Shown: positions 9,501 to 56,803 of the stretch, in pieces | Position numbering within the stretch: the first letter of the stretch is position 1 | How the letters are laid out: every line of letters begins with the position of its first letter | Origin: Octopus vulgaris | Lineage: Eukaryota | Assembly: GCA_951406725.2 (NCBI GenBank) | Contig: OX597841.1 | Span: 62,001 to 126,000, forward strand | Length of the DNA: 64,000 nucleotides | Direction of reading: 5' to 3' | Made by a program: the position numbers and the translations under genes | The notes under the pieces: generated by a model | The model's input: only the letters and a program-made list of their open reading frames with translations | Databases searched by the model: none | Told to the model about the DNA's origin: nothing

Positions 9501-12253
9501 AGGAAATACATATTGAATTACCTCGATCTATTTAACTTGATCCATTTATTTTTATTATGTGTGTATGTGCGTGCGTGTGTGGTTGTAAGCGTATGTGGTT
9601 GTAAGTGTGTGCTACATGCTCATTTATTTTACAGGTGAAACTGGTGATTTATAAAAACCAAACAGATGTGGTAACTATAATATTTGATGGACGAAATACA
9701 ACCCTTCAAAGCTGGTTCTCTCACGAAAAGTTGAAAAATTCACCGTGGAACGACCTAGCTTCAGCCACCGGAGTTCAATTCTCAATTGAGGGATTCAGGT
9801 ATGCAAATATATATTTCATCTTCTTTTATTTTGTTATGTAGAGACCTATATTGTTAAAAAATGTCACTTTACGTACGCTATAGATAAATTTTAACACTAT
9901 ACATTTCGACGCGACACTTTCTGGTGATGAACAACGCATCTCTAGGCTTTCAACATTATATCTTCATTTATTATAATATACAGAATGCAAATTTGAACTA
10001 ATACTGCTTCCGTCCGTAATAATGAAATATATTCTGCCTCTTGACTAACAGCAACGCTAGTGATTTGTTAATCACTGTTTTTCTATACCGAGGCTAAATA
10101 GGTCTGCGCATGCGGATGTCAATGACTACTTCATATTGAAGTTTTGAAAGAAACAGGAATACGTACAGCGGGAAGACCGAAAATGTCTTGGAAGTTATAA
10201 CATGCCGGCGGGAAATAATATCACTAGGTGAGACAAGCTGACACTGAATCAGCTTCGCTGACTGATAGGTGACGGTCGTTTAGAGAATGCGCGGGCTAAA
10301 ACTACGCGCCTTCACTAGTCAGTTAAGGTGAGACAGTGTCACGTGACAACTTGCTACTGCTGCCTGCTGGAGCCTCGCGGTAGGTATTTAAAGGGAGAAT
10401 TTTGACAAGTCTGTCAGTCACCGGCTGACACTCGCTGACGATACATCGAAGAGGCCCGGGAACAGAAGAAAGAAGACATGCACACAACACCAGAGCTGAA
10501 GACATCCCCGAAAGGGCGGGGGGATCCCGCCACGTCAAAGCGGTAGAGGAGTAGGGGCCGAAACCGGACGTGGTTCCTCCTGATGATCACTTGAGCTAAT
10601 GGATCCTACATAGGAGGTGTTGTGGTAGCAGACTAAGAAACACGGTTGTAATTCCTCCTAGCAATTCCACCGCCGCCGAAAAAGGTTATTTCTCTGTTGC
10701 TAATATATTTCCGTATTTTTAACAACACACTTTTAAATTAAATGATTTCCAGTGACAAACAGCTCAGTTTCCTGGATTTCACACCAAGAAGCATGTTTCA
10801 AAGTGGGACACAGGAAAATATATTTTCACCTTAATGTGCTCATTTACTTGTTTCAGTCATTTGACAGTGGCCATGCTGGAGCACTGCCTTTAGTCGAGCA
10901 AATCGACGCCAGGACTTATTTTTTGTAAGCGTAGTACTAATTCGATCGGTCTCTTTTGCCGAACCGCTAAGTTACGGTTGTCAAGAGATGTTGGGGCGAC
11001 AAACACACACACACACACACACACACACACAAACACACACACACACGCACACACATATATATATATATATACATATATACGACGGGCTTCTTTCAGTTTC
11101 CGTCTACCAAATCCGCTCACAAGGCTTTTGTCGGCCCGAAGCTAGAGTAAAAACACTTGCCCAAGGTGCTACGCAGTAGGACTGAACCCGGAGGATGTTG
11201 TTGGTAAGCAAGCTACTTACCACACAGCCACTTTACCATAATTATATTTACTTGTAAGTGTTGGGTTTAGATATTTTTATGTTCCGTTATATAATTTATT
11301 TTGACTAGAATTCATTTTATATTTATTTAGCGCTTTGATAAGATGTTTAATACAGGAAAATGTTATCGCTCGTATGTTTGTGGCCGTTTGTGGATTTATC
11401 TATTTTTGTACTAAAGTGTATGCCTCGTGTGTAATTTCGCCTTTGTTGGTGTATTGACATTTGCGCATTTCTGCGTGTTTGTGTGAGCATGTGTGTGTGT
11501 GTGTGTGTGTGTGTGTGTGTATGTGTGTGGGTGTGTGCGCGTACGTGTGTGTGTGTGTGTGCGTGTTTCAGTGCATATGTGTGTTTTTATGTGTGTGAGT
11601 GTTTAAACCCACATCTTTATGTGTATACACATTTAGTATGATACACAGATGGCTATTTTTAATTAAACACTGACTAATTCAATTGCGTGTAGCGGACATA
11701 CTAGTCTATTTAATACATGTTTAGATTTTCATATTCTGAAACCCAAACAAGTTTTATTTTTATTTTTCTCCTTAGACATGTACGTCGCTTCCATATAACA
11801 TTACATGTTAATTGTGAAGGGGACAATGGCTGGTTGACCATCAATGAGGGACCACTTTTCTGTCAGTGGGAAATGTCAGATCACTACCCTATATTTCGTT
11901 ATTCTGATACAAAATCGAAAGTCATATGGAACAACGGTAAGTGATATTGAATCTTCTGCGTGTGTGTGTGTGTGTGTGTGTGTGTGTGTGTGTCTTACTG
12001 TGAGTAGTAATACTAAAAGTTAATTTTGTACTTATTGTTCAGGAACCAATAAGCTTGATTGAGCTGATTTATGAATAAAAGCATTCTGACCGAGAATCGA
12101 CTGCTATTTCTAGTAATTCGAGTGACCACGTATAAAGCCTTCCCACGATATATTTGAATGTCTTTTTGTTGTTGATGTTGTTATTTGTTACTTGCAGGTT
12201 ATGCATTAGCAGACTCCATGGCCATATTCATCCGCCTGAGGCAGCAGAACTAA
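6579..12253 (+). CDS. Copy A: intact 5-exon gene, 295-aa secreted protein (signal peptide + PAN/Apple-like module + uncharacterised C-terminal domain). Exons 6579-6906, 7626-7804, 9635-9798, 11776-11936, 12198-12253
   Basis: Hand-spliced. All introns are GT..AG with phases 1,0,2,1, giving 888 nt open from ATG to [30 protein letters not shown]...[23 protein letters not shown]...|[18 protein letters not shown]...|VKLVIYKNQ...WFSHEKL...|RRFHITLHVNCEGDNGWL...|[17 protein letters not shown]. The same exon boundaries recur in every paralog. Confidence 0.9.
7380..7530 (-). mobile_element. 3' tip of a restriction-like-endonuclease (R4/NeSL-type) LINE next to an (ATT/GTT)n tract in intron 1; also present in copies C, E, F
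   Basis: [12 protein letters not shown] resembles the LLGTAHILRKVL C-terminal motif of such elements and is followed by a trinucleotide tail. Confidence 0.45.
9165..9385 (+). mobile_element. RTE-clade LINE 3' fragment in intron 2 (also ~19030-19245, 25535-25755, 34730-34950, 40800-41015, 53660-53880)
   Basis: [24 protein letters not shown]...W resembles the RTE C-terminal W.P.GKR..GRP...W motif. Confidence 0.65.
10338..10419 (+). promoter_or_regulatory. Core-promoter-like motif set inside intron 3 (E-box palindrome, TATA-like box, Inr)
   Basis: GTCACGTGAC at 10338-10347, TATTTAAA at 10385, and TCAGTC with its A at 10416 (TATA at -31). Activity unknown. Confidence 0.35.
10845..11232 (-). mobile_element. 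tRNA-derived SINE type 1 with internal (TA)/(TG) microsatellite, in intron 3 (paralogous copies ~15536-15980, 23740-24165, 55340-55760)
   Basis: A-box GTGGCTGTGTGGTAAG, B-box GGGTTCAGTCC, ACCTTGGGCAAG core; matches the full-length copy at 27208. Confidence 0.8.
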
Positions 12254-12299
12254 CCCAGCACATGATAACCATTGATACTATTGATGTTGTTAACGTCCA

Positions 12300-56100: not shown

Positions 56101-56803
56101 TGTTTTTATGTCTGTGAGTGTTTAAACGCACATCTTTGTGTGTATACACATTTAGTATGGTACACAGGTGGCTCTTTTTAATTAATCACTGACTAATTCA
56201 ATTGCGTGTAGAGAACATACTGGTCTATTTAATAGATGTTTAGATTTTCATATTCTGAAACACAAACAAGTTTTATTTTTCTTTTTCTCCTTAGACTTGC
56301 ACGTCGCTTCTATATAACATTACATGGTTTTTGTGATGGGGACAGAGGCTGGTTGACCATCAATGAGGGACCACTTTACTGTCAGTGGGAAATGTCAGAT
56401 CACTACCCTATATTTCGTTATTCTGATACAAAATCGAAAGTTATATGGAACAACGGTAAGTGATATTGAATCTTCTGCGTGTGTGTGTGTGTGTGTTTGT
56501 GTGTGTGTGTGTGTGTGTGTGTGTGTGTGTGTGGGTGTGTGTCTTACTGTGAGTAGTAGTACTAAATGTTAATTTTGTACTTATTGTTCAGCAACCAATG
56601 AGGCTTGATTGAGCTGATTTATGAACAAAAGCATTCTGACCGAAAATCGACTGCTATTTCTAGTAATTCGAGTGACCACGTATAAAGCCCTCCCACGATA
56701 TATTTGAATGTCTTTTTGTTGTTGATGTTGTTATTTGTTACTTGCAGGTTATGCATTAGCAGACTCCATGGCCATATTCATCCGCCTGAGGCAGCAGAAC
56801 TAA
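50127..56803 (+). CDS. Copy E: intact 295-aa paralog. Exons 50127-50454, 51177-51355, 54129-54292, 56295-56455, 56748-56803
   Basis: Same exon lengths (328/179/164/161/56) and GT-AG sites as A; open frame to TAA. Confidence 0.9.
51520..51946 (-). mobile_element. Same intron-2 SINE insertion in copy E, 2 units (also copy F ~62685-63100)
   Basis: TSD GTTGTAAAGAAT; two tandem units. Confidence 0.8.

Follow-up and report, generated by a model that had tools for sequence, protein, structure and literature searches.

Patchwork variants of a hypervariable exon in an octopus tandem gene array, and exchange along the whole gene

Clustered paralogs, chimeric haplotypes and pseudogene copies that may serve as templates are features of the major histocompatibility complex (MHC), of plant resistance (R) genes and of self-incompatibility genes, whose haplotypes diversify by interlocus gene conversion, and the 'peak of divergence' model describes one exon that is far more divergent than its flanking introns (PMC3924837). 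Among molluscs, the fibrinogen-related proteins (FREPs) of snails are secreted and carry a fibrinogen-type domain; gene conversion together with point mutation has been reported for BgFREP3, and PAN/Apple modules are found on some molluscan proteins with fibrinogen-related domains (FReDs) (PMC7588048). The sea urchin Sp185/333 (SpTransformer) genes form a clustered, repeat-rich invertebrate family with within-exon mosaics, duplications and deletions (PMC5103432), and cephalopod arrays such as the protocadherins arose by tandem duplication specific to the lineage, and gene conversion has been suggested to homogenise them in octopus (PMC9068888). Each system bears a likeness to the locus considered here, a window of 64,000 nucleotides from Octopus vulgaris (assembly GCA_951406725.2, contig OX597841.1, positions 62,001 to 126,000; all positions below are those of the window), which consists of repeat-rich animal DNA with a tandem family of five-exon genes, copies A to F. 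The variants of exon 4 in this array are patchworks of one another. This patchwork is real, probably stems from a textbook mechanism that is not specific to the exon, and occurs in an apparently undescribed octopus family: no description of it was found in the literature, including by way of six LOC identifiers, in a search that did not extend to supplementary tables, which may list the genes.

All five copies of exon 4 (A to E) are 161 nt long and flanked by AG and GT. They vary at 39 sites, of which 17 are informative; 8 of the 10 possible pairings of copies are present, and 55% of the pairs of informative sites are incompatible. The original prediction had read conflicting groupings from these exons and taken them to imply recombination within the exon. 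The 3' block that A and E were said to share comprises six exon sites exclusive to the two (A coordinates 11868, 11869, 11874, 11891, 11892 and 11894), and their common intron start is found at intron position +14 (11950). Over 11860-12009, A and E differ at only one of 110 unmasked nucleotides, a silent change at 11923, compared with 10 of 84 in the 5' part of the exon, and this stretch is a putative conversion tract. The proposed kinship of A and B is likewise present, in three common states (11778, 11781 and 11827), and that of A and C over 'NCEGD' comes down to two adjacent sites in one codon (11810-11811), the remainder being the majority state. The grouping of D with E does not hold at the nucleotide level: with zero exclusive sites in exon 4 it was rejected as a clade, and the resemblance of the two proteins is an overlap of states common to C, D and E with states common to B, D and E. 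The affinity of C, E and F outside exon 4 was borne out, both in exon 1, where they differ from each other at 0-1 of 328 nt compared with 10-11 for A, and by the short interspersed element (SINE) in intron 2, which C, E and F carry and for which A has an empty site. This polarised insertion groups C, E and F, whereas the 3' block of exon 4 groups A with E. A similar change of relationship along the sequence is seen between B and D, which differ at 16 of 84 positions upstream, 2 of 135 over the equivalent of 11865-12039 in A, and 27 of 156 downstream. As a separate observation, the differences of copy A in exon 1 are mostly replacement changes (7.5 compared with 1.5).

A break inside exon 4 is judged likely because of the spatial pattern of the conflicts and the additional paralogs. 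The best single break falls at 11858-11868, where it shortens the parsimony trees by four steps (P=0.0025 with sites and 0.011 with codons as units) and separates the tree ((AB),E,(CD)) on the left from ((AE),C,(BD)) on the right, the left tree reappearing in intron 4. Incompatibility grows with distance, with a Mantel correlation of r=0.67 (P=0.0008) for the amino acids of the window copies and of r=0.56 (P=0.0002) when four database paralogs are added (P0002, P0003, P0004 and P0014, 4 of the 7 proteins passing the identity filter). In the resulting set of nine sequences, all nine leave-one-out sets give P<=0.0065 and none of 200 non-recombining simulations attains the observed r; with two of the more distant paralogs also added, r=0.21 (P=0.013). 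Exon 4 requires 9 extra steps, compared with 1.3-3.5 expected under six one-tree models (P<=0.004), and codons 10 and 39-40 make up a four-gamete set once P0004 is included, which joins the 5' residues of C to codons 39-40 of the A/E type. Reciprocal approximately unbiased (AU) tests, made between the two halves of the exon and between different exons, reject the tree of the other partition in each case; these are given little weight because the trees were fitted to their own partitions and the cut was picked post hoc.

Several results weigh against such a break. The predicted recombination inside the exon finds support in the position of the break, in the distance pattern and in the extra combinations, but not in the pairwise homoplasy index (PHI; P=0.09-0.51), MaxChi (P=0.06-0.35) or a GENECONV-like run test (P=0.11-0.37), all applied to exon 4 alone. 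The nucleotide Mantel test goes from P=0.023 to 0.125 once adjacent sites of the same pattern are merged, the single-break test with flanks gives P=0.14-0.21, the one-tract test with flanks gives P=0.03, or 0.22 by blocks, and the protein homoplasy test gives P=0.016 and 0.066. Many tests were made, and the P values are uncorrected. A further point of this kind is that a null model with two-state toggling yields as much homoplasy as is observed (P=0.17-0.41), as would be expected under convergence, in which a few codons under strong selection would toggle between preferred residues on a single tree through recurrent mutation and not exchange. That only one of the 17 informative sites is silent, that most pairings rest on one to three sites, and that PHI, MaxChi and the run test fail to reach significance for exon 4 also speak for this explanation. 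Nonetheless, the two-state null accounts for the amount of homoplasy and not for its spatial pattern: toggling yields no distance dependence, yet such dependence is seen in every leave-one-out set, and the A/E block is accompanied by an intronic site. Convergence is considered an unlikely source of the patchwork.

Contigs from other samples provide an independent view of the exon. Of the 24 runs listed, all as contigs, four were examined (X1, X4, X5 and X7), with site states deduced from depth values that agree between tables. Record 12 of X4 (111 nt) is of the C type at codons 28, 31 and 33 and of the A/E type at codons 39-40; codons 31-40 fit inside one 31-mer. In record 27 of X7 (161 nt) the first codon is of the A/B type, the middle resembles E, and codons 28 and 31 are of the C type; P0003 shows this combination too, and the record is less secure because its phase spans a 30-nt shared stretch. 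Record 28 of X7 is of the D type and record 15 of X5 is a further variant. On the unfavourable side, neither the A/E block at codons 31-33 nor the codon-11 states of A and of B were seen in the contigs of X4, X5 and X7, in which the filters leave holes, so that this absence is not conclusive. The contigs of X1 do not cover the codon 31-33 block; the RNA label of this run is a guess, its coverage of 10 of 28 bins includes the intron, and it has no bearing on expression. In the RNA-labelled runs just 0.03 of the words are present. An artefact of assembly or polishing, by which reads of one copy would have overwritten another and left A (or E) as a consensus chimera, would fit the absence of the A/E block from three independent DNA-type runs, and several 1-bp losses in C and D point the same way. 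However, A and E differ within their tract, both at the silent site and in the length of a GT repeat; the signal persists after either of them is dropped; the D-type exon and new mosaics appear as single contigs in other samples; and the chimeric structure of copy B recurs in O. sinensis. An artefact appears improbable, to about the same degree as convergence.

Exchange is not confined to exon 4: conflict is as strong in the introns and the 3' flank. The 3' flank holds 46 informative sites in 1,632 nt, 56% of whose pairs are incompatible, and shows a PHI signal (P<=0.002) stronger than that of the exon, with 27 extra steps compared with 4-5 in simulations. The 19 extra steps that are left without CpG sites, in a non-coding flank as incompatible as the exon itself, are a further point against toggling codons. 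The pair C+E makes up 15 of the 36 pair tallies in 13345-14309. At the protein level, 18 of the 43 aligned proteins have all four exons in full; among these, nearest neighbours shift from exon to exon, and swaps of whole exons are found throughout the family. Conservation in the 18 is lowest in exon 4 (39% compared with 52-64%), which is distinctive for divergence and not for exchange. Two side observations concern further parts of the genes. From upstream to exon 2 (6180-7804 in A, with the equivalents in C, E and F) differences amount to 0.8-1.7%, compared with 3-5% elsewhere, which suggests that the 5' halves may have been converted recently. Intron 4 of D, at the equivalent of 12040-12105 in A, has dense private sites and a 24-nt insertion, with a MaxChi break at 12025/12040 (P=0.0005), and this cluster was probably imported from a more distant paralog.

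The divergence of exon 4 is a peak against its surroundings. The mean difference among copies is 12.2%, compared with 3.3-5.1% for introns 2-3 and the 3' flank, the intron stretches adjoining the exon being intermediate at 7.6-9.1%, and 32 of 161 sites are variable compared with 241 of 3192 in non-coding sequence (Fisher P=1e-6). The peak is sharp, at 11760-11900, and replacement divergence (pN) reaches 0.126 in exon 4, compared with 0.028 in exon 3. Silent divergence (pS) in exon 4 is raised as well (0.104), giving a pN/pS of about 1.2 that is not significantly above 1 (P=0.55, on 32 synonymous sites), which tells against the selection reading without refuting it. A narrow peak of raised silent and replacement divergence is, in turn, what selection against homogenising conversion is predicted to produce (PMC3924837); imports from older paralogs would look similar.

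The sharpness of the peak could also be read as the mark of a directed, possibly somatic, templated diversification aimed at exon 4 with broken copies as donors. A promoterless exon-4 donor exists in the form of copy D, and each of the three DNA-type runs has other variants. Against this, exchange is just as frequent outside the exon, D came from an ordinary inversion, and every variant so far fits germline copies; neither a recombination signal nor a special enzyme turned up, although no search was aimed at either. Directed diversification is held to be very unlikely, slightly more so than convergence or an artefact. In its fullest form it would make the array a cephalopod anticipatory recognition system, in which dozens of secreted proteins with PAN and fibrinogen-like domains would have their two binding loops shuffled into many combinations, in part by somatic recombination that draws on promoterless donors like D, so that each octopus would carry its own repertoire. 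This picture, too, is very improbable.

The encoded protein has a signal peptide and a PAN/apple domain in exon 1, followed by a domain from exons 2-5. The PAN fold is indicated by a model of P0002 that matches the HGF N domain (Z 9.7, root-mean-square deviation (rmsd) 2.4, 79 aligned residues), all of the top 17 rows of the structure search with this model being of PAN/apple type or covering the same residues, and by weak Pfam PAN_3 matches in 9 of 43 family members (best E 0.00068). Pfam scans of the family members gave no family for the domain from exons 2-5, no Ig family and no Fibrinogen_C match at E<=0.1 (0 of 43); PDB sequence searches with P0002, A2 and A3, profiles included, gave no hit below E 0.2, and nothing useful came from Pfam searches with individual exons or from an Atlas search with exon 4 by itself. 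The C-terminal domain is modelled with a predicted local distance difference test score (pLDDT) of 89. In Foldseek, FReDs lead the matches to it weakly (E 0.013-0.1, template-modelling (TM) score about 0.4), and Atlas places it at TM 0.52 to an intelectin-like cluster. Fibrinogen-type folds align at Z 4.2-5.0 (rmsd 4.5-5.9) and, less favourably for a fibrinogen-like reading, are tied with TLDc at Z 5.2; because no match exceeds Z 5.2, fold comparison neither identifies the family nor rules it out. The stronger evidence is indirect and comes from relatives: a Fibrinogen_C match is present in 3 of 29 scanned (P0083, P0091 and P0095), and in all three the Pfam positions of about 2-56 continue directly into a domain of the exons 2-5 type. 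P0091 matches tachylectin-5A (E 1e-7) across the N-terminal fibrinogen segment only, a segment that the octopus array proteins lack. We read the domain from exons 2-5 as a divergent member of the fibrinogen-related domains in which PAN appears to have taken the place of the N-terminal segment, and the secreted protein is probably lectin-like.

Exon 4 contains two nearly invariant cysteines, present in 99% and 100% of the rows of the A3 alignment that cover them. Twenty-one codons vary among the window copies; most fall within the loops flanking these cysteines, and the 21 are also the more variable ones across the family (P=0.008). In ficolin-type lectins such loops contain the ligand site, and the exon-4 loops may correspond to the ligand subdomain of FReD lectins (ficolin, intelectin and tachylectin). 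New loop combinations, which the original prediction had expected from recombination, are seen in so far as the loop of the first cysteine is paired with varied loops of the second, but the exchange that pairs them is not peculiar to exon 4. The search with P0002 gave 54 relatives among 593 candidates, 51 from Octopus and 2 from Argonauta; almost all are annotated as 'uncharacterized' and they lie mostly on a single long contig per species. A profile search, with clustering at 50%, gave 1,028 clusters at E<=0.001. As an aside, the exons 2-5-type domain recurs in large multidomain proteins (P0083, P0091, P0095 and others), where its partner modules are TSP1, EGF, C-type lectin, Sushi, ZP, F5/8 and 7TM, and it may deserve a family model of its own.

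The architecture of the array reflects ordinary rearrangement (Table 1). Copies A, B and E have open reading frames and AG/GT splice sites. Exons 1-2 of A translate identically to O. vulgaris protein P0039, and those of F to the start of P0004. In C the first ATG is altered and a 1-bp loss in exon 5 leads to a stop at codon 280, which may be either a damaged gene or an assembly error. The copies lie on mixed strands because of a 29.6-kb inversion, whose junctions lie at 15471/15475 and about 45068, the right one with short imperfect microhomology; about 400 bp of intron 3 are missing. With the inversion undone, the order is head to tail, A, C, B, (orphan exon 3 + D), E, F, all on the forward strand. 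Copy D, a partial gene that starts about 77 nt past the inversion junction, is half of a gene split by this inversion, since flipping it back joins the orphan exon 3 to D. That gene had lost its exons 1-2 exactly at the 275-bp repeat, a probable unequal crossover. Intron 2 of B changes abruptly from diverged to young-type sequence at about 26717, and O. sinensis P0002 is annotated with the same chimera of diverged exons 1-2 and young exons 3-5. Among the repeats, a two-copy minisatellite of about 147 bp directly follows each stop codon (12281-12589, 22389-22705, 38494-38809, 45655-45968 and 56852-57132), and is followed in turn by arrays of 184-bp SINEs of 2-5 units, in numbers that differ among copies. 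The segment 4245-5337 resembles the 3' flank of the genes (about 71-75% identity), which suggests that it may be the flank of an older copy upstream of A. The array also seems under-annotated, because the O. vulgaris gene models P0004, P0014 and P0039 appear to be mis-predicted, with exon 3 skipped, a piece of intron 3 used and copies fused.

Table 1. Positions of gene copies, exons, rearrangements and repeats in the 64-kb window
Feature	Position	Strand	Remarks
Copy A	6579..12253	+	intact five-exon gene, 295 aa
Copy A exons	6579-6906, 7626-7804, 9635-9798, 11776-11936, 12198-12253	+	
Empty SINE insertion site, intron 2 of A	7957..7971	+	
Exon 4 of A	11776..11936	+	resembles B at 11778/11781/11827, C at 11810-11811 and E from 11860 on
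A/E identity tract	11860..12009	+	150 nt; starts within exon 4; GT repeat lengths differ
Inversion	15473..45067		29.6 kb
Orphan exon 3	18613..18776	-	5' half of broken gene (3' half is D)
275-bp repeat	18968..19243	-	common to intron 2 and 3' flank; also 34672-34949
Copy B	22733..33417	-	intact 296-aa chimera
Copy B exons 1-2	33087-33417, 30657-30835	-	diverged type
Copy B exons 3-5	25121-25284, 23052-23212, 22733-22788	-	young type
Exon 4 of B	23052..23212	-	
Copy C	38837..44412	-	exons 44085-44412, 43205-43383, 40384-40547, 39136-39296, 38837-38891
Exon 4 of C	39136..39296	-	private sites clustered round 5' end; protein-level resemblance to P0004 there
Copy D	45145..45627	+	exons 4 (45145-45305) and 5 (45572-45627) only
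Copy E	50127..56803	+	intact 295-aa gene
Copy E exons	50127-50454, 51177-51355, 54129-54292, 56295-56455, 56748-56803	+	
Intron-2 SINE of E	51542..51942	-	two 184-bp units; F: 62697-63097 (two units); C: one unit
Exon 4 of E	56295..56455	+	
Copy F	61286..62520	+	exons 1-2, interrupted by window end

The explanation that we consider probable is gene-wide germline conversion and unequal crossover, together with selection that keeps the exon-4 loops diverse. Ordinary interlocus conversion and unequal crossover would act over the full length of the copies and would keep most regions alike. Exon 4 would encode what is probably a ligand-contact surface, formed by two loops round the two invariant cysteines of the divergent fibrinogen-like domain, and diversifying selection would maintain many amino-acid variants there, giving rise to the divergence peak. 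Short tracts bounded in the conserved strand between the loops would then pair 5' and 3' loop variants anew, and broken copies such as D could serve as donors, whichever direction the transfer took. The family is a fair candidate for diversified recognition, immune or other, judging from its sequences: a large array on a single chromosome, with one hypervariable exon and two recombining loops, would be a candidate diversified recognition protein in octopuses. The exon would also indicate where this unnamed fibrinogen-like domain probably binds, and the array offers a testable target as regards tissue, ligand and variation between animals.

The known systems differ from this locus in several respects. 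Cephalopod protocadherin arrays belong to another family, and PAN, apple and fibrinogen are absent from the main text of the paper describing them (PMC9068888). In Sp185/333, mosaics consist of the presence or absence of elements and pseudogenes are almost absent (PMC5103432), whereas the octopus exon 4 has a fixed length, point differences and broken copies. The octopus protein is unrelated to MHC and R proteins, and its case is read from array copies, with a pN/pS not significantly above 1. As for snail FREPs, identity with a FREP (IgSF, the immunoglobulin superfamily domain, plus fibrinogen) was ruled out: the N-terminal domain of the octopus proteins is PAN, which stands in place of the N-terminal fibrinogen segment, there is no IgSF domain, and none of the 43 members matches Fibrinogen_C. 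Unlike that of the snail proteins, the octopus diversity seen here lies between germline copies and not between cells.

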